A DNA stretch of 64,000 nucleotides from Lachnospiraceae bacterium (GTDB lineage Bacteria > Bacillota > Clostridia > Lachnospirales > Lachnospiraceae), in contig JAZSEY010000020.1 of assembly GCA_045531905.1 (NCBI GenBank), positions 82,020 to 146,019 of the forward strand, given 5' to 3'. The position numbers and the translations under genes are program-made. Shown one piece after another: positions 18,568 to 54,571 of this stretch. Under the pieces are notes generated by a model, which saw nothing but the letters and a program-made list of their open reading frames with translations, had not been told where the DNA came from and did no database searches. Every line of letters begins with the position of its first letter. The first letter of the stretch is position 1.

Positions 18568-19419
18568 ATGAACAATGTACAAATTAGCAGTTTTACTGCT
18601 ACTAGTGCCTATGAGGCACAAAAGACCTGGTCGAAGAAGACAGATGCTACTTCCAAGACTGGTAAGCCAGAACTACCGAATAAGCCAGGACAAAATGGCA
18701 AGGCGGACGCTTTACAGAGTGTGATGGCAAAGTACAACACGAAGTATGGTAACACCATCGGTGATGTGGAACTTTCAGAGTCAGCGGAGAAGTACTATGA
18801 GAAGCTGAAGGCAAAGTTTGGCAATATGGAATTCGTATTGGTTAGTTCGGATATGAAGGAACAGGTGCAGTCTCAGGCATCTAAGTTTGGAAATGCCAAT
18901 AAGATGGTAGTCTTGATTGACAATGAGAAGCTTGAGAAGATGGCCACTGATGAATCCTATCGCAATAAGTATGAAGGCATTATTGCTGCAGCGGGTCCTC
19001 AGTTAAGCAGTTTAAAGAATAGTCTTACTGCTACAGGAGCCAAGGTTACAAACTTTGGTATGCAGATAAATGATAATGGTCAGGCAGAATACTTTGCCGT
19101 AGTTGATAAGTCATTGGCTGCTCAGAAGGAAAGAATTGAAAAGGTCGCTGAGAAGAAAGCGGCAGAAAAGAAAGCCGCAAAGAAGGCAGAGGCTAAGGCT
19201 GCAAAAGAAGAAGCCATTGAGGAGAAAAAAGCAGAAGCAGCTGCTGAAAAGGCAAATCAAAAGGCAGGAAAAGCAGAAGCAGATACTGTGGTATTAAAGG
19301 CGACAACTGTAGATGAATTGGTGCAAAAGATTCAGGATACAGTTTATGCTGAAATGAGTGACAGTGTTCGTACCGAGGCAGAGATGAACGTAGGTCAGCA
19401 TATTGACTTTAAGTTCTAA
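18568..19419 (+). CDS. Hypothetical protein with a Lys/Ala-rich repetitive C-terminal region
   Basis: Contains EKKAAEKKAAKKAEAKAAKEEA repeats. No recognised domain. Confidence 0.5.
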   Translation: MNNVQISSFTATSAYEAQKTWSKKTDATSKTGKPELPNKPGQNGKADALQSVMAKYNTKYGNTIGDVELSESAEKYYEKLKAKFGNMEFVLVSSDMKEQVQSQASKFGNANKMVVLIDNEKLEKMATDESYRNKYEGIIAAAGPQLSSLKNSLTATGAKVTNFGMQINDNGQAEYFAVVDKSLAAQKERIEKVAEKKAAEKKAAKKAEAKAAKEEAIEEKKAEAAAEKANQKAGKAEADTVVLKATTVDELVQKIQDTVYAEMSDSVRTEAEMNVGQHIDFKF

Positions 19420-38175: not shown

Positions 38176-40104
38176 ATGAGTGGTTTAGTTTATACTAATG
38201 ATTCTTGTATTGGTTGCAACAAGTGTATCCGAGCATGTAGTTGCGATGGGGCCAACATTGCAAAAGAAGTGGATGGAAGGAATTACATCGAGGTAGATGC
38301 TGAGAAATGTATTGCATGTGGAGCATGCTTTGACGTGTGTGAGCATCATGCCCGTTCTTTTATGGATGACACAGAGAGATTCTTTGCGGATTTGGCAAAG
38401 GGTGAGCGTATCTCTATCATTTTAGCACCTGCATTTAAGGCAAATTACTATAGTGAATATGAGAAGATTTTGGGTGGTTTAAAGAAGTGTGGTGTTAACC
38501 AGATTATTAGTGCTTCCTTTGGTGCAGATATTACTACATGGGCTTATATTAAGTATATTACTGAGAATAACTTTATGGGCGGAATTTCTCAGCCATGTCC
38601 AGCGGTAGTAGGTTATATTGAAAAGTATATTCCAGAGTTAATTGACAAGCTGATGCCTGTACATAGTCCAATGATGTGTAGTGCTATTTATGCTAAGAAG
38701 TATATGGGTATTACAGATAAATTGGCATTTATCAGTCCATGTATTGCAAAGAAGAATGAGATTGATGATCCGAATACGGATGGTTATATTTCATACAATG
38801 TTACCTTTGATCATTTGATGAAGTATGTGAGAGAGCATAATGTATATGGTCCTGCAGTTTCAGATGATGTACCATATGGTTTAGGTTCAATTTACCCAAT
38901 GCCGGGTGGTTTGAAGGAGAATGTATACTGGTTATTAGGTCAGGATGCATTTGTTCGTCAGATGGAAGGCGAGCAGCATATGTACCATTATCTGGAGAAG
39001 ATGAAGGGTAAGATTAAGGCAAATATGACACCATTCCTCTTCATTGACGCCTTGAATTGTAGCGGTGGTTGTCTCTATGGTACAGCCATTGAAGAGAAGA
39101 TGAATCAGGCAGATGATGTTATCTGTAATTTACAGAAGATTAAGGAAGTTAGCGATAAGCAGGGTAAGAAGAGTGCTTGGGAAGAGACTCTAACACCAGC
39201 AAAACGTTTGCAGAAGCTCAACAAACAGTTTGAGAATTTGAGTCTGATGGATTTCATTCGCAGATACACAGATAAGAGTGCCGGATGTAGAATCAATCAT
39301 CCTTCTGATGAAGAATTAGATGAGATTTTCATGACCATGAATAAGGATACCAGAGACAAGCGCAATATCAATTGTAGTTGTTGTGGTTATCAGACATGCA
39401 CAGATATGGCGGTTGCCATTCACAATGGTTTCAATCATAAAGAGAATTGTATTCACTATGTAAAGGATTTAGCCATTGAAGAGAAGGAATACATTGATGG
39501 TCTCATGCAAGATATGAATGAAAAGAACGAGCGTGAGCAGGAGCAAAAGCAGATTATCTTCGATATCATTAATGAGAACTTTGCTGACTTGTCCAATTCC
39601 GTTGCAAGTGTAGAGAGTAGTAGTAATGCTAACGCAGAGAACAGCGGCGAGATTTCAGATGCCATGTCAAATGTGCGTGATTTTGCTGCGAAACTTAGAA
39701 GTTCATTAGAGCATATCCGTAGTTATTTGGAAGCTTTGGAAGAGAATAACAATGACGTTATCAATATTGCCAGTCAGACTAACCTCCTAGCATTGAATGC
39801 TTCTATTGAGGCTGCTAGAGCGGGTGAAGCAGGAAGAGGCTTCTCTGTAGTAGCTGAGCAGATTAAGGTTTTGGCTGAGAGTTCAAAGGAAACTGTTACA
39901 GAAAGTAGTCAGACAAAGTCGGATATAGAAAACAACGTTAATACTATCTTACAGGAGGCAGACCAGTTGCTTGAGATTTTGCATACTGTAGATGACAAGA
40001 CACAGAATTTGGCAGCATCTTCAGAAGAGATTGCAAGTTCTATTCAGTTGATTTCGGACATCACATCGGATGTAACTGAGAAACTTGAACAAATTACATT
40101 GTAA
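38176..40104 (+). CDS. Cytoplasmic chemoreceptor in which a ferredoxin-like domain and a [FeFe]-hydrogenase-like H-cluster domain are fused to an MCP signalling domain
   Basis: 4Fe-4S motifs [13 protein letters not shown] and [14 protein letters not shown] are present. The hydrogenase L1-like loop is SQPCPAV (one Cys lost), L2 is SPCIAKKNE and L3 is [10 protein letters not shown]. An extra CSCCGYQTC cluster follows. The MCP signature is [27 protein letters not shown]. No TM helices. Confidence 0.75.
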
Positions 40105-40316
40105 ATGATACAGGGGAATTTGTGCATGGCATTTACTCGTTAAGAATGTCTAAGCATATTCTGTGAAATATATTGCTCACACATAAAACTCGCGTAGAGA
40201 GCAGCTTGCAGGTTGCTCTCTAGCGAGTTTTATGTGTGAGCTTATATTTTGCACAGAACATGCTAATACCTTCTAAACAAGTAACTGATATGCCGAGAAT
40301 TCCCCTGTATCATTTA
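40104..40316. repeat. Palindromic intergenic element 3, filling the whole convergent intergenic gap
   Basis: The arms AATGATACAGGGGAATT and AATTCCCCTGTATCATT enclose the family modules TAAGAATGTCTAAG..CTGTGAAATATATTGCTCACACATAAAACTCGC and its inverse. Confidence 0.7.
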
Positions 40317-41146
40317 TTAGTAATTGTTGTCGGAAGGATTCCAAATCCATATACATTTTTTCCCCTATATTGAAACACTTCATAATATTCATCTTCATCT
40401 CCTGAATCGGACAGGGTTAATTGGTAGTTGTTGTAAAACTCTACATCTGTCAGATTTAATCCCGGATAAGGAACTTCAATGTTCTTGGCTGATATTTTTT
40501 TGCCTTCGATTAATCGTATATAAATGGTTTCAGAGAGGGCAAATTGCAGTTTTTCTTCTGAATATATATTATAAATTGGGGCGCAATCATCCACAACTTC
40601 ATTGACTTCTGCTGCCAGGATAGTTCCCTTTTCTGTCATTAGAATCGTGTGTTGTAATGAATTATCAAATTTATAAAAGCGAATGACCCATAAATAACAG
40701 GAATAGGTATGAAAAGAAGTATCTGTGTATCGATAAATCTCTGTATCCCAGGAATACCAGTTATTGTATGAAGAAGAAAGTGAATAAGGATAAACTCCGG
40801 CATTGTAAAAAACATCTAGTGATTTCTTTGCTTTTTCGATTGCCTGCATTTCTGTGAGAAACGTCTCGGATTCTGATGCAATGTCTACAGTGCTTTGCCA
40901 AGTTCCAGCAATTAACTTCATTCGGTCTAAGGTAGAAAGCTGTTCAGAAGCAATGCGTGCCATGGCAGTATTTGATGCCAGATAGTAATCCTCCGGTGCA
41001 GTAGAGACCGTATTCAAATTGCTCTTGCTAGTAATTTCCATAGCTATTTGCGGGATAAATAATCCGCACAATATAGAAGTGATTGTGAGCATAACACCAA
41101 GTGTTGTCGACATATGTAATTTAGGATTTTTGAAATGTCGTAACAT
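40310..41146 (-). CDS. Hypothetical secreted/membrane-anchored protein, last gene of the RR-HK operon
   Basis: N-terminal signal/anchor followed by a Tyr/Asn-rich domain. Confidence 0.5.
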   Translation of the reverse strand: MLRHFKNPKLHMSTTLGVMLTITSILCGLFIPQIAMEITSKSNLNTVSTAPEDYYLASNTAMARIASEQLSTLDRMKLIAGTWQSTVDIASESETFLTEMQAIEKAKKSLDVFYNAGVYPYSLSSSYNNWYSWDTEIYRYTDTSFHTYSCYLWVIRFYKFDNSLQHTILMTEKGTILAAEVNEVVDDCAPIYNIYSEEKLQFALSETIYIRLIEGKKISAKNIEVPYPGLNLTDVEFYNNYQLTLSDSGDEDEYYEVFQYRGKNVYGFGILPTTITNK

Positions 41147-44407: not shown

Positions 44408-44513
44408 CAGAGTAGGAAATTGTTGTGACAGACAATTTCCTATTTTTTCATTCAGATACATTTTAGATACAATTGTGGTTTATGATAGGGATATGTTGGA
44501 AGGAGGAATAGCC

Positions 44514-45710
44514 ATGAAAATACGTTTTTTAATATTTGTAGCATCCTTGTGCATTTGCCTTTCCGGATGTCAGACATCAGGTGATATGAAGGTTGATAAG
44601 GAGAGTGAGAATGCAGGGAATCATTTGCAGAATACATTGTGTGAGCAATTAAAGGCAGACGAGACATGGACAGAAGTAATCAATACACCAGATGGAAAAT
44701 CAATCGAAATAGATGTGCGTGTTCAGGTGCCTTCGGTGAAATCATTAAATGTTTATGCTGCAAAGAAAAAGAAAATAGACACGGCTACGCGAAAGTCATA
44801 TTTAGAAAAGTATAATACAGGAACGTTACTTGCTTGTAAAAATGATGACCCTTATAGTGCAGGTTTGGGAGATCCGGAGTTGGTGCCAAATTGGGAAGAG
44901 CACACTGGTGATTACACAGATAATTATTATGGTGTGGAATATCGGGATAGAGAATACTTCATGTATTTCAATGACGCAGATGATTTTAAATGGGGGAATA
45001 TGATGACGCTGTTACCAATGGATAAGATAACTGGAAACGGCTCTGATTATTTTATTACGTTGAATTTTGATGCATCTGTCACAGAAAATGTTTGTGCTTT
45101 AGGTCAGGAGGATGCAATTTCTCAGGCAGTTGCCTTTGCCAATGAACTGACAGGTCAATCGTTTGATGTGATAAATACATATCCTCTTGTGTGGGGAGAT
45201 GATACTAAAGCAAATGGATATGAGATTTATCTGAGAAGAACTATAGATGGGGTGCCATTAGATGGAAATTATTATTATTGGGTGAATTATATGATGCATA
45301 GGTATTATGACGTATATCCTAATGCCTATGGCAGTTTGGAAAAAATGCATGTATATATCAATGATGATGGCATCTTGGGATTTCAATATATCGGAATGCG
45401 TGAAGAGGGAGAACTTGTTGCTGAAGATGTAAAACTATTGGACTTTGAGAAGGTAAAGGAAAGTCTTCGGATTGCATTGATTGAAAATGTGGATGGAATG
45501 TTTTCTGATTTGTATTTGGGAACTTTAGAATTATTATATTTTCCATTGTGGGATACGGAAGAACCGGAAAGGTTTACAATTATCCCAGTGTGGCGATTAC
45601 TAGCAGATGAGGATGCGGATAAAGCGGAGAGCGTGGTTATGATAAATGCCATGGATGGTTCATTGATTGATATTGAGTCCAATATTTTTTTAGAACCGGA
45701 AGGGGAATAG
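44514..45710 (+). CDS. Hypothetical lipoprotein, paralog A
   Basis: Lipobox LSGC. The C-terminal block LELLYFPLWDTEEPERFTIIPVWRLLADED is shared with the next gene. Confidence 0.55.
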   Translation: MKIRFLIFVASLCICLSGCQTSGDMKVDKESENAGNHLQNTLCEQLKADETWTEVINTPDGKSIEIDVRVQVPSVKSLNVYAAKKKKIDTATRKSYLEKYNTGTLLACKNDDPYSAGLGDPELVPNWEEHTGDYTDNYYGVEYRDREYFMYFNDADDFKWGNMMTLLPMDKITGNGSDYFITLNFDASVTENVCALGQEDAISQAVAFANELTGQSFDVINTYPLVWGDDTKANGYEIYLRRTIDGVPLDGNYYYWVNYMMHRYYDVYPNAYGSLEKMHVYINDDGILGFQYIGMREEGELVAEDVKLLDFEKVKESLRIALIENVDGMFSDLYLGTLELLYFPLWDTEEPERFTIIPVWRLLADEDADKAESVVMINAMDGSLIDIESNIFLEPEGE

Positions 45711-45719
45711 GAGAAAAAG

Positions 45720-46889
45720 ATGAAAGCGAAATTTAGATTATTCATAATCGGTAGCCTCATAACAATTTCTTTTGTAGGCTGTGGCGAAAAGAAAATAGAA
45801 ACACATGAAGTGCCTGATACACAGGCGTCGGCGCTCACAGATGATTTAACAGAGTCGTTGCAGGTTACAGAAGATGTTTGGAAAGATGAGATTAGCATTG
45901 AAGGCTCGCAGTATACGGTAAAGGTGCATGCCGAGGTTATGGTGCCGGATGTGAACTATATGCATAAAATTGCCTATAAGCAGAAGGTGTTTTCTGCGCA
46001 GGATAAAGAGCGAATTATCTCTGAATTAGCAGAAGGAGATGTGTATGATGGAGCTATGCTGATAGCAAATCCTGATGAAACTGCTGATGTAGAATCAACA
46101 TGGGAAAAGATAGATAACTACGAAGGGGAGCATTATATCTTTTCCTATCTGGGACAGGATTATGTGTTGACTATGGCAAATGACACAGCATTAGAACAAT
46201 ACGGTGGAACATACATGCGTTTTGAACCAGTAAGTAATGTGTATAACTACGGTAAGCAATATAGTTATGGGAATTTCACAAATACGCCAAGTGAAAATCA
46301 GTGTGAGATTTCGAAGGACGAGGCTTGTCAAACTGCAGTGGAATTTGTGAAGAAAATGGAACAAGAAGAGTTTTGTGTGGTATCGTCATATCCATTGCAA
46401 TGGTATGAAACGGAGAAGAATCATGAAGAGAGTTATGTCGAGTGGTTGGATGGATATGAAGTGGTCTTATATAGACAAGTGGATGGCGTGTTAGTAGATG
46501 GATGCATGCCTGCTGACTTTCTCGTGTCAGATATAGAAGGACCATATGCCAGAAACCGTATGGAAAGTGTACATGTATTTGTTACGGATAGTGGTGTTGT
46601 AGGATATGAGCACAATGGTGCGCGTGCAGTAGGGGAAGTTGTGGAATCTAAGGTGTCGTTAAAACCGTATTCTACAATTTTGGATGAGATGAAAACGCAG
46701 GTTGTGCAGACGGATTTTTACGGAGATTATTCTCCATATAGAGGGAAATTGGAATTGTTATATTTCCCAGTATATCCAGAACAAAATACTGACACATGTG
46801 TGCTATGTCCTTATTGGAAATTGACAGATGACGATGATGATCAGTTAAGTAATTTTTCCAAGATAGTAGACGCGTGTGATGTGAAATGA
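45720..46889 (+). CDS. Hypothetical lipoprotein, paralog B
   Basis: Lipobox FVGC. The C-terminal block LELLYFPVYPEQNTDTCVLCPYWKLTDDDD matches paralog A. Confidence 0.55.
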   Translation: MKAKFRLFIIGSLITISFVGCGEKKIETHEVPDTQASALTDDLTESLQVTEDVWKDEISIEGSQYTVKVHAEVMVPDVNYMHKIAYKQKVFSAQDKERIISELAEGDVYDGAMLIANPDETADVESTWEKIDNYEGEHYIFSYLGQDYVLTMANDTALEQYGGTYMRFEPVSNVYNYGKQYSYGNFTNTPSENQCEISKDEACQTAVEFVKKMEQEEFCVVSSYPLQWYETEKNHEESYVEWLDGYEVVLYRQVDGVLVDGCMPADFLVSDIEGPYARNRMESVHVFVTDSGVVGYEHNGARAVGEVVESKVSLKPYSTILDEMKTQVVQTDFYGDYSPYRGKLELLYFPVYPEQNTDTCVLCPYWKLTDDDDDQLSNFSKIVDACDVK

Positions 46890-46912: not shown

Positions 46913-47917
46913 ATGAAACATAGGAAAGAAAAGTGTTTATTACTGGGGATTTCTATAGTGTGGTTTTTGGGGATGACAGGGTGTTCTGGTTCCTTTACCT
47001 CTCCCCTTATGGAAATTACAATTGAGCCTTATGAAAAGGTAGTGTATAACACAGCGGATGTAGTGAAAGGGGATATACACCCTGAATTACGGCTGAAATT
47101 GGTTACGGATGAATTCAGAAGAGTCAATTACTACCCTGTTCACGATGAAATGGAAGTGGACCAGGTATATGTGCAGGATGGTGATATTGTCACAAAAGGG
47201 GATTTGTTAGTAACCTTCAAATCGGCTGACATAGAGGAGCAGTTAACGACTTATCGAAATGAATTAGAAGAAAATAAACTTTTAATCAAACACTACAAAA
47301 AACTCATGAAGATTGACAAAAATCAAGATTATAGTCAGGATATTATTTCTCTGGAAGAAGATGCAGAAGTGATAGAGATGCGAATTCATGAGTTAACAAA
47401 AAAACTGGAGAACTATCACATAAAGGCAGAGGGATTGGGCGTTGTTTCTAATGTATCAGATATGTTGGCTTACGGCGTGGTTGGCGTACAGGATATGCTG
47501 ATGAATGTGACCTATGGTTCTGGGGATTATTATGTGTCAACCGAAGATGATTATGCATTTCAGATAGGTGACATTTATGAGGCAAGCTTTGGTGTTGCTG
47601 TTTATCAAATGGAGTTGAAAGAAATCACAGAAAACACAACTGGAGAAAGAGAACTTCGTTTTGCTATGGCAGAAGGCGAAAAGGTGATTACGGACCAGAA
47701 ATCATTAGATATGGTAATCCGAAAAACAGTTATGAAAAATGTGCTTTATGTACCCAAGAAGGCTGTTTTTAAAAATGACGTTGAAACCTATGTTTATCTA
47801 ATGGATGGGGATGGCTATAGAAAGGCTGTGCCGGTAACAATTGGGGCTACAGTAGACGGAGTTACAGTGATTACTGCCGGTGTAAAAGAAGGCGACAAGG
47901 TGGTGGTGGACAAATGA
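46913..47917 (+). CDS. Membrane-fusion (periplasmic adaptor, HlyD-like) lipoprotein
   Basis: Lipobox MTGC. There is a biotin-lipoyl-like hairpin (GDLLVTFKS) and a C-terminal beta-barrel block (KVITDQKSLDMVIRKTVMKNVLYVPKKAV). Start set to the second ATG, which has the better ribosome-binding site. Confidence 0.6.
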   Translation: MKHRKEKCLLLGISIVWFLGMTGCSGSFTSPLMEITIEPYEKVVYNTADVVKGDIHPELRLKLVTDEFRRVNYYPVHDEMEVDQVYVQDGDIVTKGDLLVTFKSADIEEQLTTYRNELEENKLLIKHYKKLMKIDKNQDYSQDIISLEEDAEVIEMRIHELTKKLENYHIKAEGLGVVSNVSDMLAYGVVGVQDMLMNVTYGSGDYYVSTEDDYAFQIGDIYEASFGVAVYQMELKEITENTTGERELRFAMAEGEKVITDQKSLDMVIRKTVMKNVLYVPKKAVFKNDVETYVYLMDGDGYRKAVPVTIGATVDGVTVITAGVKEGDKVVVDK

Positions 47918-50166
47918 GAAAAGAACGTGAGCGGGTTTTCGCAACACTTTTAGTTGGAATGATGCTACTTACCGGTTGTCAGTCTGCCGCACAGGTTGTT
48001 CCAGAACTGTTAGAGCCATTGGCGGTAAATGATGCATACAGACCTGTAGAGTATGGGGATGTAGGAACCGTGGATGTGCAGTTTGGGGTGATGCACCCAC
48101 AGGACATATGTCATTTTTGGCAGGTTTCTATTGAAGTGTCTGAAATTAAAGTGGATGTTGGAGAATACGTGGAACAGGGACAAGTATTGGCGTTGGCAGA
48201 TATGACTGGGCTAGAGGAGCAAATTGCAGATGCGAATGCGGCAATCACATTAGAGAAAAAATTGCATGAGCAGAAGGTGATTAGAAGAGAAGCAGAAGTA
48301 CAGGAATTGCAATATAAGCTGAAGGGAGCAAAGCAGAAAAAAGATAAAAAAGCAATTAAGGAATACAAAACAGCGTTGCAGGTGATGCAGGAAAATAATA
48401 GTTACGATGAGCGATTGTACAAAAAAATGCTAAAGACGTTGCAGGCTGATTTAAAAGAACTAGAACAGGCAAAAGCAGAGGGGACACTAATTGCCAGAAC
48501 TTCAGGGTATGTAACATATGTGAAGGATATATCGGAAAATAATATGACAGGACCTTCTGAAAATGTGGTAGTTATTTCAGATTATGAGAAAAGTTATATT
48601 GAATTAAATTCGGTAACAATAGACCAGAACCCATTCAATAAATATGCCGGTTGTTTTACTTATTACGATGGGAAAAAAGTTGTCTTGGAGGAATATGCAT
48701 ACAGTGAATCTGCTATGCTTACGATTCAAGCAAAGCAGCAATATCCCAATGTGCGACTCCGATTTGCTGAGCCAGAGAGCATAACAACGGGATTTGAAAT
48801 CGGTAGCAATGTGCCGGTATTTTTTTACCAAAACTTAAAAGAACATGTATTGGTTGTGGGAAATGATTCATTATATGAAGATGAAGTGGGCTTTTTTGTA
48901 TATGTAATGAAAGGGCAGGAAAAACAGCAAAGATACATTGAAATTGGCAACCAGGATGCCGCCAATACAGAAGTCATTTCTGGGTTAGAGGAAGGCGAAC
49001 TTGTGCATTATAGTTCGGAATCAGTATTGCCAGCGAGCTTCACTCCGTATACTGTGACAACTGCGGATTTTACTTTGAGTGAAACATCTAAGAACTATAA
49101 GGTACAGGATTACGAAACAAACTGTGTTTATTCAGAAGTAGAAGGTAGGATAAAAGAAGTATTTGTAACAGAAAGAGATTTGGTGAAAACAGGAGACTTG
49201 ATTTGTACGATTGAAACAAATGAAGGTGGGGCTGATATCAAAGCGCTTTCTAACCAAATCAAGCATTTGAAAAAAAGTCATCAGGAAGCCGTGTCCGATT
49301 ACGAAGCACAAATTGCAGATTTGAAACAACAGATGAAGCAGGCAAAAAAGGATGATAAGCAGAAAGAGGCATCCGAGATAGATGAAGAACAAGAACCGTA
49401 TCTTTATCAGCAGCTATCCTGTCAGATAGATATGGTGGAAGCAGATTTAAAAAACTGCGAAATCCAGTATGCATATGATTTGAGAAAACTACAGACAGAG
49501 TACAAAAAAATGACAGCTAACAACAATGGAAATGGTGTTGTAAAGGTGTTTGCACAGTGTGATGGCGAAATTGCCAATATGCGGATAAAGGTAGGGAAGA
49601 ATTATACTTATGGTGAGCGTTTGTTCAATATTCGCATACCGGCTACTAAGAGAATACTGTTGGGAGTTGTGGGAATTGGACCACAGTTGAATCAAGAGGT
49701 CCGTTTTATCAATCAAGATGGTGTTAGCTATACTGGAACCGTAACTGGTACTACAGGTGGCTTAGAAAATGATAGTCGTATATATGTGACGGAACTGAAT
49801 AACCAGATTTTTGTTACACAAAATGTAAATGATACCGGCAACTCTTACTATGTGGTACAAGCAGATGATTATGGCATTTTCGAAGAAGAAGGAATGGAAG
49901 CAGAATATGTCTACGGAAAAGTGGTGAATGCCGTTGTGGTACCAAGAAAGAGTGTTTTCACAGAAGAGGATTTGAAACAGCAGACATTGTACTATGTGTT
50001 CAGAATTCAAAACGACCAACTGGTAAAACAGTATGTGAAAATATTGGATAAAGCATCCTTGGGTAACACTACAGATAAAACGATTCAGGAAACAATGTGT
50101 GTGATCAGTGGGCTTCATGAAGGGGATGTGATAGCAGGCCCGGTTGAAGATAAGGAAGAAAAGTAG
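47914..50166 (+). CDS. Large tandem-duplicated membrane-fusion-like lipoprotein
   Basis: Lipobox LTGC. It has two coiled-coil hairpins and two lipoyl-like motifs (GQVLALADMTG and GDLICTIETNEG). Confidence 0.55.
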   Translation: MRKERERVFATLLVGMMLLTGCQSAAQVVPELLEPLAVNDAYRPVEYGDVGTVDVQFGVMHPQDICHFWQVSIEVSEIKVDVGEYVEQGQVLALADMTGLEEQIADANAAITLEKKLHEQKVIRREAEVQELQYKLKGAKQKKDKKAIKEYKTALQVMQENNSYDERLYKKMLKTLQADLKELEQAKAEGTLIARTSGYVTYVKDISENNMTGPSENVVVISDYEKSYIELNSVTIDQNPFNKYAGCFTYYDGKKVVLEEYAYSESAMLTIQAKQQYPNVRLRFAEPESITTGFEIGSNVPVFFYQNLKEHVLVVGNDSLYEDEVGFFVYVMKGQEKQQRYIEIGNQDAANTEVISGLEEGELVHYSSESVLPASFTPYTVTTADFTLSETSKNYKVQDYETNCVYSEVEGRIKEVFVTERDLVKTGDLICTIETNEGGADIKALSNQIKHLKKSHQEAVSDYEAQIADLKQQMKQAKKDDKQKEASEIDEEQEPYLYQQLSCQIDMVEADLKNCEIQYAYDLRKLQTEYKKMTANNNGNGVVKVFAQCDGEIANMRIKVGKNYTYGERLFNIRIPATKRILLGVVGIGPQLNQEVRFINQDGVSYTGTVTGTTGGLENDSRIYVTELNNQIFVTQNVNDTGNSYYVVQADDYGIFEEEGMEAEYVYGKVVNAVVVPRKSVFTEEDLKQQTLYYVFRIQNDQLVKQYVKILDKASLGNTTDKTIQETMCVISGLHEGDVIAGPVEDKEEK

Positions 50167-50185
50167 CATCTGACTAGGAGGATTT

Positions 50186-52990
50186 ATGTTTCACTTTATA
50201 ATACAAAAAATGAAAAACAAAGGTTGGATGACGATTTGCCAGTTGATGGGTATGGCATTTTTAGTAGCGTCATTAAGCTGTCTTCCTATGTTTCAGGCAG
50301 GGGCCTCGGATAAATTGTTACGGACAACCTTTGAAAAATACATAGAAGAGAATAATCAGTATCCAACCGTAATTGGTCGCAGTGGAGTATGCGATACCGA
50401 AAAATCCTCAGAGGCAGAACAGGTAATTCGGCAAATTCAGGAGTATGAAAATACATGGAAGCGATACCTATTAGACCTGACCCCATTGACAACACAGACA
50501 AGACTGACCTTGGGAGAAGAAAAGAGTCGGGGAACTTATGACAGTAAAAATAGTTATCTGTCTATCAGTTATATACCGGACATGATGGAACATAGTCAGA
50601 TAGTATATGGAGAAGGATTTGATATGGAAAATGCTGATGGTGACTGCTATCCATGCATCATTTCTGAAGGGGTAATGGACAGTTATCAACTAGTTGTAGG
50701 TGAGACAATTTCCCTTGGTCTGGAAGACGAGGATGCAAAGCAGATTCAACTTGTAGTAGCAGGTATTTTCAAGGAAAAAGAGAATAAGGATTTATTCTGG
50801 TATGTGGAACCGAATGAATTCGAAAAAGAGATATTTGTCAGTGAAGAACACTTCAATGACATTGTCAAGCGTTACGATAAAGCGAGTATTACCTATCATC
50901 ATTTTATGTTGTTGGATTATCGTGATATCAATCACCGTAATGTTGATGATGTTATGTACTATTTGGAACAGTTTCACCTAAAGGATGCAAATTTGGAGGA
51001 GACAATCTACCGCTTCTATGCTCCTTACTTAGAGGGAAAAAAGTCGATAGAAATTACGCTTTGGGTGTTGGAGCTTCCTTTGCTTGGAATGGTTCTTGCT
51101 TTCATTTATATGGTATCAGGTCAGTTGGTCAGGGCAGAATTAAATGAAATTGCTATGCTGAAAAGTCGAGGGATTAAGAGGAAACAAGTAATATTTCTTT
51201 ATCTGTTACAGGCAGGTATCACATCTGTGCTTGCATTGGCGGTGGGATTTCCTTTTGGCTGGTTGCTGTGCAAGATTGGAGGCGGAACGGTTGCATTTTT
51301 GAAGGTATCCACAGGTAGTATGCATCTGTATCATCCGGTATGGCAGATGTTGCCATATGGATTATTAGCTGTGATTGTAGGTAGTATTTTTCTTTTGATA
51401 CCGGTTATACAAAACTCTCACGTGTCTATTGTGGAGCGAATAGGTGGAGACAATCGCAATCAGAAAATGCTATGGGAAAAATACTATCTGGATGTGCTAT
51501 TGTTCCTAGGTTCCATTTATCTGTTTTATAATTTTAACAAACAACAAGACTCTATACGATTACATGCACTGGCAGGGAATACTATGGATCCGTTTATCTT
51601 CTTGGATACCATACTGTTTATTGTGGGATTTGGCTTGATTACCTTGCGACTCATCCATTGTCTGGTGCGAAGAGTGTATACACTTGGAAAGAAAAAATGG
51701 AATCCGGTCATGTACGCATCCTTTTTGCAAATTACAAGAAGCTTTTCGAAACAGGGATTTATTTCTGTGTTTATGATACTGACAGTTGCGTTGGGGATTT
51801 TTTACGCGAATACAGCCAGAACCATTAACCAAAACAACATAAATCGTGTGGAGTATGACAATGGTGCAGATGTGGTCATAGAGGAATATTGGAAGAAAAA
51901 AATCTATGAGAACAATCAGGGTGTGAAGGATTTTATTTATTTGGAACCGGATTATGGGAAATATGAAATGTTGGTACAAGAGGGGCTATTATCCAATGTT
52001 ACCAGAGTCATTTCAGATCCTTATGCATTGGCCATTGCAGGCAGTACCCAAATGGAAAATTGTTTGATGCTAGGTATTCATACAAAGAATCTGGGAGAGA
52101 CCTCGGATTTGAATGTTTCGATGATGGATGATGTACATTGGTATGAGCATTTAAATGCGTTGGCGAAGGAACCATATGGTTTCATTATTTCCAGAAATCT
52201 GGCGGAGGAAATGGAGCTTGCTGTGGGAGACAGTCTGGGGGTACAACGAGAAAGCCACGAGGCCATTTCTAAGGTTTTCGGAAGAATGAATGGAACGGTG
52301 GTTGCCATTGTAGATGGTTGGCCGGGTTTTTCTCAGTACTATATGGCTGAGGGAGAGCAAAAAGAGCGATATCTGATTATTGGTAACTATGCAACCATGG
52401 TACAGACCTATAAGGTAACGCCGTATAGTATATGGGGAAGGCTGGCAAAGGGGGTAACCAGTGATGATGTGTATCAGGCACTACTGGATCAACATGTGGA
52501 AATAGATAGTTTCGCCAGCATGGCGGATGATATAGAAGAAAAAATGCAATCGGCATTGGTTCAGATTACAAATGGAATGTTCACCTTGAGCTTTGTCATT
52601 GCGTTATTACTTTGCGGAGTCGGATATTTGATTTATTGGGTTTCCTCTATCCGCCAAAGGGAGTTGCTATTTGGAGTTTACCGTGCTATGGGTTTGTCGG
52701 TGAATCATATCAATCGCATGCTTGTAAATGAGCATATATTCAGTACCTTGTTATCTATTGTGGCGGGCTGTATCGTTGGCATGGTGGCAACCTTCCTGTT
52801 TACAAAACTGTTTTGTCTCATTTATTTGCCGGAGAAGCACAATCTTCCACTTTCCATTTTCTTTGAAGGTATGGACATTGCAAAACTGTTATTGATTGTG
52901 TTGGCAATGATTGTAGTTTGTGCGTTGGTGCTTCGGAAACTGGTTAGAACATTGAATATTACGCAAGCATTAAAGATGGGGGAGGAGTAG
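50186..52990 (+). CDS. Fused double FtsX-type ABC permease (MacB-like, 934 aa)
   Basis: Two 4-TM FtsX bundles, each preceded by a large extracytoplasmic domain. Confidence 0.7.
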   Translation: MFHFIIQKMKNKGWMTICQLMGMAFLVASLSCLPMFQAGASDKLLRTTFEKYIEENNQYPTVIGRSGVCDTEKSSEAEQVIRQIQEYENTWKRYLLDLTPLTTQTRLTLGEEKSRGTYDSKNSYLSISYIPDMMEHSQIVYGEGFDMENADGDCYPCIISEGVMDSYQLVVGETISLGLEDEDAKQIQLVVAGIFKEKENKDLFWYVEPNEFEKEIFVSEEHFNDIVKRYDKASITYHHFMLLDYRDINHRNVDDVMYYLEQFHLKDANLEETIYRFYAPYLEGKKSIEITLWVLELPLLGMVLAFIYMVSGQLVRAELNEIAMLKSRGIKRKQVIFLYLLQAGITSVLALAVGFPFGWLLCKIGGGTVAFLKVSTGSMHLYHPVWQMLPYGLLAVIVGSIFLLIPVIQNSHVSIVERIGGDNRNQKMLWEKYYLDVLLFLGSIYLFYNFNKQQDSIRLHALAGNTMDPFIFLDTILFIVGFGLITLRLIHCLVRRVYTLGKKKWNPVMYASFLQITRSFSKQGFISVFMILTVALGIFYANTARTINQNNINRVEYDNGADVVIEEYWKKKIYENNQGVKDFIYLEPDYGKYEMLVQEGLLSNVTRVISDPYALAIAGSTQMENCLMLGIHTKNLGETSDLNVSMMDDVHWYEHLNALAKEPYGFIISRNLAEEMELAVGDSLGVQRESHEAISKVFGRMNGTVVAIVDGWPGFSQYYMAEGEQKERYLIIGNYATMVQTYKVTPYSIWGRLAKGVTSDDVYQALLDQHVEIDSFASMADDIEEKMQSALVQITNGMFTLSFVIALLLCGVGYLIYWVSSIRQRELLFGVYRAMGLSVNHINRMLVNEHIFSTLLSIVAGCIVGMVATFLFTKLFCLIYLPEKHNLPLSIFFEGMDIAKLLLIVLAMIVVCALVLRKLVRTLNITQALKMGEE

Positions 52991-52992
52991 CA

Positions 52993-53718
52993 ATGGAGCA
53001 AAAAAACATGATTGTTGCAAAGGGCATTGAAAAAGCCTTTCCCATGGGAGATGGCGGGCAGTTTTACGCATTAAAAGGGATAGATGTTGAAATTCCGAAA
53101 GGGAAGCTGATCATATTGAAGGGGCGTTCCGGTTCAGGGAAAACCACACTGCTTAATATGCTCAGTACGCTAGATACCCCGACGGAAGGGGAAATATATC
53201 TGGATGGAGAAAACATGTCAGGGCTTTCTGAGACGAAAAAGGAATATCTTAGAAGAGCAAAACTAGGGTTTGTCTTTCAGTCAGTGGCATTGATTCCGGT
53301 TATGAATGCCTATGAGAATGTGGATTTTTCCTTGCGGTTATCTACATTTGAAGCAGAAGAACATTTAGACGATGTAGTAGTTCTTTCAGAGGAAGACAGA
53401 CATAATCGGATTATGGATGTGCTTTCCTTAGTTGGAATGGAAGAAAGATGTTTGCATATGCCGGGACAAATGTCAGGTGGAGAACAGCAGCGTATTGCAA
53501 TTGCCAGGGCCATTGTCCATAAACCTAAGGTGTTATTTGCAGATGAGCCTACAGGTGCTTTAGATACAGAAATGGGACTCAAAATTGTGAAACTCTTTCG
53601 GTTATTAGTGGAGAAAGAGGGGATTACCATCATAATGACTACCCATGATCCAGGATTGATGGAATTGGGAGATGTTGTTTTTGAGATGGAGGACGGTGAG
53701 ATTATTGATAGAATGTGA
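52993..53718 (+). CDS. ABC transporter ATP-binding protein (MacB/LolD type)
   Basis: Walker A GRSGSGKTT, signature MSGGEQQRIAIARA and Walker B VLFADEPTGALD. Confidence 0.9.
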   Translation: MEQKNMIVAKGIEKAFPMGDGGQFYALKGIDVEIPKGKLIILKGRSGSGKTTLLNMLSTLDTPTEGEIYLDGENMSGLSETKKEYLRRAKLGFVFQSVALIPVMNAYENVDFSLRLSTFEAEEHLDDVVVLSEEDRHNRIMDVLSLVGMEERCLHMPGQMSGGEQQRIAIARAIVHKPKVLFADEPTGALDTEMGLKIVKLFRLLVEKEGITIIMTTHDPGLMELGDVVFEMEDGEIIDRM

Positions 53719-54571
53719 CGGCTTGGTAAAGATATATAAAACAGATGAAATAGAGGTTATGGCATTACAGGGCTTAGATTTGACCGTGGAGTCAGGAGAA
53801 CTCATGGCAGTGATTGGGAAAAGTGGCAGTGGAAAGAGCACGCTGATGAATATGATTGGTGGTCTGGAGAAACCTTCTGCAGGCAGAATCATTGTAGACG
53901 ACAAAAATCTTGCTGACATGTCGGAAGAGGAAATGGATATTTATCGAAAGCAAAAGATAGGTTTTGTTTGGCAAAAGAGTGCCAGAAATCTCTTCAACTA
54001 TTTGACGGCGGTAGAAAATATAGAAGCTGCCATGCAGTTTTCAGATATCACAAAACAAGAGAAAAGAACTAGAGCAGAATCCTTGTTAGATAAGGTGGGG
54101 ATGTCCCATAAAAAAGATGCTTATCCTCCGCAGATGTCTGGTGGTGAACAGCAGAGAGTTGCCATTGCAGTGGCGTTGGCAAATTTACCGGATATTTTGT
54201 TGGCAGATGAGCCCACCGGAGCAGTGGATAGTAAAACCTCTGCTATGATTCAGGATTTGTTTCGCCAATTAAATCAAGAGCTTGGAATCACCATTATTAT
54301 CGTTACCCACGACCCTAAACTTGCTGATAAGGTGGACCGAGTAGTGATGATTTCTGATGGTAAAATCAGTACAGAAAAAATTGTGACAGAGCATACCCAT
54401 GATGAGTTTACGGTGATGGATAAGGCGCATCGATTACAGCTTAGCGAAGATATGCTGGCAGCCGCAGGTATTGACAGTAACAAGGTGCGCATCAGCATGG
54501 AAGATGGTAGACTCATCATTACCGGTGAAAGTGTAAACAACCTCCCAAATTGTGAGAATTCAGTGATATAA
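53705..54571 (+). CDS. Second ABC ATP-binding protein (MacB/LolD type) with a ~70-aa C-terminal extension
   Basis: Walker A GKSGSGKST, signature MSGGEQQRVAIAVA and Walker B ILLADEPTGAVD. The likely start is TTG 53705 (or ATG 53672), overlapping the upstream stop. Confidence 0.8.
   Translation: MIECDGLVKIYKTDEIEVMALQGLDLTVESGELMAVIGKSGSGKSTLMNMIGGLEKPSAGRIIVDDKNLADMSEEEMDIYRKQKIGFVWQKSARNLFNYLTAVENIEAAMQFSDITKQEKRTRAESLLDKVGMSHKKDAYPPQMSGGEQQRVAIAVALANLPDILLADEPTGAVDSKTSAMIQDLFRQLNQELGITIIIVTHDPKLADKVDRVVMISDGKISTEKIVTEHTHDEFTVMDKAHRLQLSEDMLAAAGIDSNKVRISMEDGRLIITGESVNNLPNCENSVI

Follow-up and report, generated by a model that had tools for sequence, protein, structure and literature searches.

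The class of putative chemotactic hydrogenases was named in HydDB in 2016 as '[FeFe] Group C2, chemotactic (putative)', and sensing of H2 via methyl-accepting chemotaxis proteins (MCPs) was proposed for its members (PMC5037454). A protein with this fusion of a hydrogenase-type domain and an MCP, CLAU_RS00565 (WP_013238691) of Clostridium autoethanogenum, is listed as FeFe_C2 (PMC9431212 supplement). Metagenomic surveys of gut and rumen routinely count genes of this class under the label 'sensory Group C2', and the group has been reported to be depleted in Crohn's disease stool and to be higher in Holstein than in Jersey rumen. Here we describe a gene encoding the same fusion in a 64,000-nucleotide (nt) stretch of DNA of a Lachnospiraceae bacterium (GenBank assembly GCA_045531905.1, contig JAZSEY010000020.1, positions 82,020 to 146,019 of the forward strand), hereafter the window. 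Both the architecture and the H2-taxis hypothesis have already been published, hence neither is new.

The putative sensory [FeFe] hydrogenases of subclasses M2f (Group C) and M2e (Group D) have three hallmarks. They carry two N-terminal [4Fe-4S] motifs, lack C299 along with the remainder of the Group A proton path, and bear a Cx2Cx4Cx16C motif in their C-terminal part; in M2f a PAS domain is added (PMC8163306). In these sensory enzymes C299 is mostly replaced by Ala (PMC10407848). The characterised members TmHydS and TamHydS share the hallmarks, and in vitro both bind [2Fe]adt and show a reaction with H2 (PMC8163306, PMC13104023, PMC10407848). The activity of TamHydS amounts to ~0.1 µmol H2 per mg per min, and the characterised enzymes lacking C299 have very low activity (PMC10407848). 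The C-terminal cluster of TamHydS stays unreduced under 1 atm H2 (PMC13104023).

The receptor encoded in the window possesses all of these Group C/D hallmarks but PAS, and the analogy to HydS drawn in a preliminary description of this DNA is exact at the level of the published hallmarks (PMC8163306). Group C2 comprises Group C-type catalytic homologues linked to an MCP; here MCPsignal lies in the same polypeptide, and the assignment to Group C2 is made by domain architecture. The reading best supported by sequence and analogy is that of an H2- or redox-sensing chemoreceptor related to HydS. More specifically, we consider it moderately probable that the gene encodes a cytoplasmic, probably homodimeric MCP with a complete sensory-type [FeFe]-hydrogenase input, which would mediate taxis along gradients of H2 (or of the H2/ferredoxin redox state).

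Domain architecture and active site of the receptor

Residue numbers given below refer to the 642-amino-acid (aa) product, and to CpI where so marked. The N-terminal region (aa 8-59) harbours two CxxCxxCxxxC ferredoxin motifs (C11-x2-C14-x2-C17-x3-C21 and C45-x2-C48-x2-C51-x3-C55) and matches the Pfam family Fer4 (E 5e-08), as well as Fer4_6 and Fer4_7. It is followed by a hydrogenase H-domain, detected with Fe_hyd_lg_C at aa 81-302 (E 1.9e-31; 110 bits against a cut-off of 22.1). Around the C-terminal accessory cysteines, PF04060 ('FeS', putative Fe-S cluster) was found at aa 398-426 with an E-value of 1.4e-4, slightly under its cut-off. The MCP hairpin begins one residue past C425, the last cysteine of this cluster motif, and MCPsignal (PF00015) was identified at aa 492-637 (E 1.4e-21; 77.5 bits against a cut-off of 34.6), the tip corresponding to a 21-residue stretch at aa 536-556. 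Pfam detected neither HAMP nor PAS in the receptor at E<=1, and no hydrophobic or transmembrane segment was present, the peak Kyte-Doolittle mean over 19 residues being 1.24. In phmmer searches the N-terminal half matched solved [FeFe] hydrogenases (1e-16), while the MCP part matched MCPs of Thermotoga maritima (6e-14; TM14 6.4e-14) and Aer-type receptors (~1e-8). The preliminary description had recognised the two ferredoxin motifs, the extra cysteine cluster and a genuine MCP signalling domain devoid of transmembrane segments and HAMP, all of which were recovered here, the cluster as an exact Cx2Cx4Cx16C; the profile searches with Fe_hyd_lg_C and MCPsignal that it had recommended gave the E-values stated above.

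In canonical [FeFe] hydrogenases the H-cluster is held by the loops TSCCPxW (L1), MPCxxKxxE (L2) and ExMxCxxGCxxG (L3). The corresponding positions of the receptor were assigned by motif register with these loops. L1 reads I-S-Q-P140-C141-P-A-V, L2 reads S187-P-C189-I-A-K192-K-N-E195, and L3 reads D291-A-L293-N-C295-S-G-G-C299. The receptor keeps all four cubane ligands of the H-cluster (CpI C300, C355, C499 and C503 correspond to C141, C189, C295 and C299), as well as the Lys/Glu pair of L2. Four substitutions were found, which are, in CpI numbering, Cys299 to Pro140, Met353 to Ser187, Met497 to Leu293 and Phe417 to Tyr240. Canonical proton-transfer residues were not found at the aligned positions of the receptor. 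The earlier claims that the first loop (SQPCPAV) has lost the proton-transfer Cys, with P140 at the C299 position, and that the second and third loops are retained, with C189 and C295/C299 in place, hold accordingly.

The receptor is a typical, ordinary member of a large catalogued class. The search with the full protein yielded 6,054 database proteins at E<=1e-10, and the best 120 of these are all 637-672 aa long, 59-100% identical, and each equipped with PF02906 and PF00015. Among species-representative genomes 38 loci were found, mainly in Lachnospiraceae, Roseburia and Acetatifactor from human, mouse, rabbit and rumen samples; the carriers include the isolate Roseburia yibonii BX0805 and Lachnospiraceae bacterium XBB1006. 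In relatives at 47-90% identity all 20 cofactor cysteines are invariant, and so are K192, E195, P140, S187, L293, the PGGLKENV stretch and a 12-residue MCP tip.

Conservation was further counted in 137 aligned representative sensor modules. The H-cluster cysteines are retained in 135-137 of them. The residues framing [2Fe] are likewise kept (CpI numbering), with Lys at K358 in 129 modules, Glu at E361 in 135, S323 and P324 in 133 and 132, P231 in 131, and the GG pair in 132 and 131. The variant positions form a signature of their own, in which C299 is replaced by Pro in 107 modules (by Ala in only 8), M353 by Ser in 115, M497 by Leu in 123 and V423 by Leu in 120. By motif, the V423 position corresponds to Leu246 of the receptor, and a conserved E248 follows two residues on. 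As far as can be read from sequence, this signature ([S/A/T]QPCP, Met353 to Ser, Met497 to Leu) is unlike that of either characterised HydS. A decayed pseudo-hydrogenase was rejected as an explanation, since the variant residues, too, show strong conservation in hundreds of diverged relatives, and the word 'degenerate', applied to the H-domain in the preliminary description, therefore overstated the case.

The complete set of cluster ligands, the H-domain fold and an N-terminal electron-transfer domain would also fit a catalytically competent hydrogenase in which an MCP-like coiled coil serves merely for dimerisation or localisation. However, Cys299 is absent together with the canonical proton-transfer residues at the aligned positions, and characterised enzymes without C299 are barely active, as in the case of TamHydS (PMC10407848). 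The MCP tip is moreover conserved to the level needed for binding of CheA/CheW, and sister proteins bear kinase or cyclase outputs. The protein also falls outside the catalytic Groups A and B, since L1 is ISQPCPAV and not TSCCPxW and the NCBIfam cut-offs for true hydrogenases were missed by far (TIGR04105, 132.5 against 450 bits; TIGR02512, 86.6 against 405.95 bits). We therefore regard a catalytic enzyme as highly improbable.

An AlphaFold2 model was built from an alignment of 34 family members, with a mean predicted local distance difference test (pLDDT) of 75.6 and a predicted template modelling score of 0.60. Foldseek aligned ~440 columns of it to HydA of the Thermoanaerobacter kivui HydABC complex, CbA5H, CpI and DdH with a probability of 1.00 and E-values from 4e-14 to 4e-11. 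Past residue 425 the model consists of a lone two-helix hairpin (426-548 and 550-641), whose N-arm is continuous over 123 residues.

The sensor as a portable input module

The N-terminal part of the receptor (aa 1-440) was used alone in an exhaustive search over representatives of 50%-identity clusters, which returned 3,342 representatives, 788 of them at E<=1e-30. The best 150 of the 3,342 range from 445 to 1,693 aa in length and carry the module mostly at the N-terminus; the Cx2Cx4Cx16C motif is present in 137 of these 150. In one relative of 1,495 aa (P0128) the module is internal, at residues 777-1207.

Output domains were counted by a Pfam scan of 55 module-bearing relatives. HisKA with HATPase_c was found in 23 of them and Response_reg in 22, followed by GGDEF and MCPsignal (12 each), PAS types (~10), EAL (6), Hpt (4), SpoIIE (2) and HD (1). 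The sensor of the receptor is 59-60% identical to modules that carry histidine kinase (HK) or EAL outputs. A neighbour-joining tree of the sensor modules was computed from BLOSUM distances without support values, with outputs labelled through regular expressions; crude as it is, it intersperses the MCP-fused modules among those fused to HK, GGDEF and EAL. A single clade of MCP-fused sensors is not supported by this simple tree. Because MCP-, kinase- and cyclase-fused modules interleave, outputs appear to have been exchanged repeatedly, and the sequence comparison suggests that output swapping is frequent. With its modular fusion to varied outputs, the 440-aa unit thus looks like a dedicated signal-input domain.

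The junction after the last cysteine is direct and conserved (NC-[IV]-x-[YF]-x-[KR]). The distance from this cysteine to the output is 30-44 residues to the kinase H-box in many relatives, and 85-110 residues to the GGDEF motif in cyclases. Among 15 MCP-type relatives the distance to the MCP tip motif is ~115 residues in 7-8 and lies between 105 and 115 in 12. What appears to be new here, on the basis of alignments and the model, is a portable, PAS-less module of ~440 aa with a direct cysteine-to-helix junction and a QPCP/Ser/Leu signature. Its portability and signature are useful for the design of experiments; the category of the finding is unchanged by them.

The division of HydDB Group C into C1, C2 and C3 may partly mirror output domains rather than sensor phylogeny. 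In a study of Clostridium acetogens, 444 hits of HydDB-BLAST were labelled 'catalytic subunit', 42 were validated, and the discarded ones belonged mainly to Groups 4f and C2 (PMC9431212). Some of the FeFe_C2-labelled rows of that study are proteins of the kinase, GAF or PAS type that have no hydrogenase domain (PMC9431212). Homology-based C2 counts in metagenomes may be inflated by such fused signalling domains.

The gene and its surroundings

The open reading frame (ORF) on the plus strand extends over 38149..40104 and would encode 651 aa from its first ATG. A Shine-Dalgarno sequence is located 6 nt 5' of the ATG at 38176, and relatives of the receptor begin at the Met equivalent to this ATG. 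Because the spacing of the Shine-Dalgarno sequence and the starts of homologues both favour it, 38176 rather than 38149 was taken as the start. Coordinates of all features are listed in the table.

Table. Features of the receptor gene, its flanks and a second MCP gene in the window
Feature	Coordinates	Strand	Evidence
Coding sequence, 642-aa soluble chemoreceptor with hydrogenase-type sensor	38176..40104	+	ORF, Pfam, structure model
Shine-Dalgarno sequence GGGGAGG	38163..38169	+	Read from sequence
Promoter-like site, TAGAAA-17 nt-TATAAT, extended -10 (TG before -10)	38104..38132	+	Consensus match only
N-terminal 2x[4Fe-4S] ferredoxin-like domain, aa 8-59	38197..38352	+	Pfam; eight invariant Cys
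[FeFe]-hydrogenase H-domain, aa 81-302	38416..39081	+	Pfam, phmmer, Foldseek, residue conservation
C-terminal accessory cluster motif C400-x2-C403-x4-C408-x16-C425	39373..39450	+	Exact regular-expression match; PF04060
MCP signalling hairpin: N-arm aa 426-548, tip ~549, C-arm aa 550-641	39451..40098	+	Pfam, model
Near-perfect palindrome, 220 nt	40100..40320	.	Inverted repeats and RNA fold
Second MCP gene, 521 aa	6706..8271	+	MCPsignal at aa 319-464

The promoter-like site is the top sigma-70-like match in the region 37800-40400, with 10 of 12 positions identical to the consensus; the total of such matches in that region is not above the shuffled expectation. Downstream, the palindrome occupies the entire spacer between the receptor gene and a convergent gene (40310..41146, minus strand). 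Its outer arms of 19 nt (40102-40120 and 40298-40316) show 100% complementarity and reach into both stop codons, and its centre harbours a further inner pair of 19 nt and a pair of 14 nt. The predicted RNA fold has an energy of -120.9 kcal/mol (z = -16.3). No other copy of the terminal repeat was found within the window, and the Rfam scan of leader and terminator detected no riboswitch or known RNA, the palindrome giving only sub-threshold look-alikes of microRNA hairpins. The palindrome is probably a bidirectional terminator, with uncertain membership in the transcription unit of the receptor; it may represent an unusually long terminator of this kind or a palindromic insertion.

The receptor gene is preceded by an ABC-2 exporter pair (35113..37289), the gene of a membrane protein (37294..37875) and a 64-aa ORF of the XRE helix-turn-helix type (37879..38073, plus strand). 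The membrane protein has 193 aa and no Pfam match, and with the XRE-type ORF directly after it resembles a regulator-membrane protein pair with no evident link to the receptor. Beyond the palindrome, an OmpR/HK pair follows, and the remaining neighbours identified by the Pfam scan of the window genes include metabolic genes. A conserved operon context was rejected, as the surroundings of the homologues are entirely different. The receptor gene is a stand-alone unit, and its context therefore yields no functional clue.

Other observations in the window concern two adjacent DUF6034 genes (44475-46889) and a DUF6033 gene (18568-19419). Farther downstream of the DUF6034 pair, a large ABC system of the MacB/FtsX type (47914..54571) is present; one of its proteins, 750 aa long, bears a biotin-lipoyl-like (HlyD-type) motif. 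No gene resembling a mobile element was seen in the window apart from one of the PD-(D/E)XK 'transposase' family (PF12784; 14509-15312, plus strand).

The second MCP possesses a polytopic membrane N-terminus and no recognised sensor domain; with this gene in the window, the organism has more than one chemoreceptor. The two MCP domains are 39% identical over 139 aa. Their tips are near-identical, sharing a 22-residue stretch and differing just upstream of it and at S557, which is Ala in the second MCP. From this near-identity, both MCPs probably share CheA/CheW. The C-arm comprises 92 aa (~13 heptads) in the receptor and 154 aa in the second MCP.

This difference in length bears on the output of the receptor. 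A hairpin as unusually short as this one would be unable to keep full-length register with the membrane MCP in one array, che genes are not adjacent, and the same sensor drives cyclic di-GMP and two-component outputs elsewhere. The sensor could hence be as described while the MCP output feeds a Che-like pathway other than swimming (biofilm, development or gene expression), or acts in separate cytoplasmic clusters. Nevertheless, the near-identical tips suggest common CheA/CheW partners, and one match to the methylation consensus [ASTG]xx[EQ][EQ]xx[ASTG] was found, ASSEEIAS at aa 614-621 of the C-arm, a putative methylation site that is conserved in the family as AASTEEIA. Carriers such as Roseburia are furthermore flagellated, motile bacteria. 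An output apart from motility is thus distinctly unlikely, and we retain coupling to flagellar rotation in the mechanism proposed below.

Proposed mechanism and comparison with known systems

In the proposed mechanism the H-domain would hold an H-cluster, with a [4Fe-4S] cubane on C141/C189/C295/C299 that is bridged via C299 to the [2Fe] subsite. Because the proton relay is absent, with Pro in place of Cys299, turnover of H2 would be slow and the redox state of the cluster would track ambient H2. The two N-terminal [4Fe-4S] clusters could link the H-cluster to the ferredoxin pool. The change would pass to the C-terminal Cx2Cx4Cx16C cluster domain, and from C425, at the start of the 123-residue N-arm helix, it may run down the coiled coil to the tip. 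There it would modulate CheA/CheW and thereby flagellar rotation, leading to taxis along gradients of H2 or of the H2/ferredoxin redox state, towards or away from the source depending on the sign of the response.

Several points weigh against H2 taxis through an H-cluster. The model is of moderate confidence, and two loops lining its active site (238-245 and 296-316) have pLDDT values <50. The C299 position is occupied by Pro in 107 of the 137 modules and not by the Ala of both characterised HydS, and the chemistry may differ. Conserved ligands alone cannot prove occupancy by [2Fe], and eukaryotic Nar1/NARFL have no H-cluster yet retain a large part of this motif set. Neither hydEFG nor hydrogenase, che or flagellar genes were detected with Pfam in the 64-kb window, nor were they found beside homologues. 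In a published motif check the homologue of C. autoethanogenum remained 'unvalidated' as a hydrogenase (PMC9431212), and the literature yielded no report of a C2 member being purified or studied by spectroscopy or genetics. The C-terminal cluster of TamHydS is not reduced by H2; a redox relay at this site is accordingly questionable, and the signal may be transmitted by conformational change alone.

An Fe-S sensor of redox state or of oxidants that lacks [2Fe] and binds only the cubane in a Nar1-like manner would account for the loss of the proton relay and for a Pro at C299 that is unlike any characterised hydrogenase. It would also agree with the NCBIfam scores (132 against 450, and 86.6 against 406), with the failed motif check of the C. 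autoethanogenum homologue and with the lack of nearby maturase genes. Four low-potential clusters in an obligate anaerobe should by their nature respond to redox state and O2; such cubanes could report the state of ferredoxin or of the cell, or damage by O2, NO or reactive oxygen species, and serve energy taxis or oxidant avoidance. However, the [2Fe]-bridging C503 and the framing residues K358, E361 and P324 are nearly invariant over 137 diverged modules, and TmHydS and TamHydS, the closest characterised relatives by hallmark, bind [2Fe] and respond to H2. Maturase genes are normally unlinked to hydrogenase genes, and their absence from the window is therefore little informative. Genes for [FeFe] hydrogenases are present in Roseburia and related Clostridia and are transcribed by them in the gut (PMC12578642), and for this reason maturases are expected. 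A sensor without [2Fe] is on this evidence unlikely, although it carries real weight beside the H2-sensing receptor that we favour.

Going further, the QPCP-type module could represent a biochemically distinct lineage of H-cluster sensors that serves in Clostridia as a general H2 input for chemotaxis, two-component and cyclic di-GMP signalling, with the MCP version conferring H2 chemotaxis on motile gut Lachnospiraceae. We put this wider view forward tentatively, as a possibility that is rather less probable than not to hold in full. In gut and rumen fermentation H2 serves as a central currency. If H2 is indeed the signal, Roseburia and other motile butyrate producers could adjust their position relative to sources and sinks of H2, and a spatial, behavioural layer would be added to interspecies hydrogen transfer. 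The receptor would then also be the first hydrogenase-based gas taxis receptor demonstrated.

Compared with the HydDB Group C2 reference proteins, the receptor shows no difference in kind; it derives from a Lachnospiraceae lineage and not from Clostridium. TmHydS and TamHydS were compared with it through published residues and TmHydS mutagenesis primers, of which the one for S267 was set aside because it does not translate cleanly. Similar to the receptor, TmHydS of T. maritima (Group C, M2f) possesses two N-terminal [4Fe-4S] motifs, no C299 and a C-terminal four-Cys cluster, and the F417 position is occupied by Tyr in either protein (Y223 in TmHydS, Y240 in the receptor). Their L1 and L2 loops are close, with ITT-A-CPVVV and G-PCIAKK in TmHydS and ISQ-P-CPAVV and S-PCIAKK in the receptor. 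However, the positions C299, M353 and M497 are occupied by Ala, Gly and Ser in TmHydS and by Pro, Ser and Leu in the receptor, and the cluster is followed by PAS in TmHydS, whereas in the receptor the MCP hairpin follows directly, without PAS.

TamHydS of Thermoanaerobacter mathranii (Group D, M2e) shares with the receptor the replacements of M353 by Ser and of M497 by Leu, as well as the C-terminal cluster. A hydroxyl residue (Ser or Thr) in place of M353 is among the features of Group D (PMC8163306). The spacing from the C299 position to the acid of L3 is also similar, with 152 residues from A137 to E289 in TamHydS and 151 from P140 to D291 in the receptor. TamHydS differs by Ala at C299 and by the lack of a fused output, while the receptor has Pro and a 217-aa MCP hairpin. 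The Group D proton path of TamHydS runs over E252 and E289; D291 of the receptor lies at the E289/E495 position, and an equivalent of E252 was not identified by motif alignment.

The regulatory [NiFe] hydrogenase HoxBC-HoxJ (HydDB Group 2b) follows the same logic, in that a slow, non-metabolic hydrogenase serves as H2 sensor and is coupled to a signalling protein. Its metal site and fold are unrelated, and it is a multi-subunit system whose HK output controls transcription. On the side of chemotaxis, Aer, Aer2, HemAT and the soluble T. maritima MCP TM14 are likewise cytoplasmic or cytoplasm-sensing MCPs that read a redox-active or gas-binding cofactor. Receptors of the Aer/Aer2/HemAT type use flavin adenine dinucleotide-PAS, haem-PAS or globin sensors for this, whereas the receptor described here uses a four-cluster hydrogenase module.

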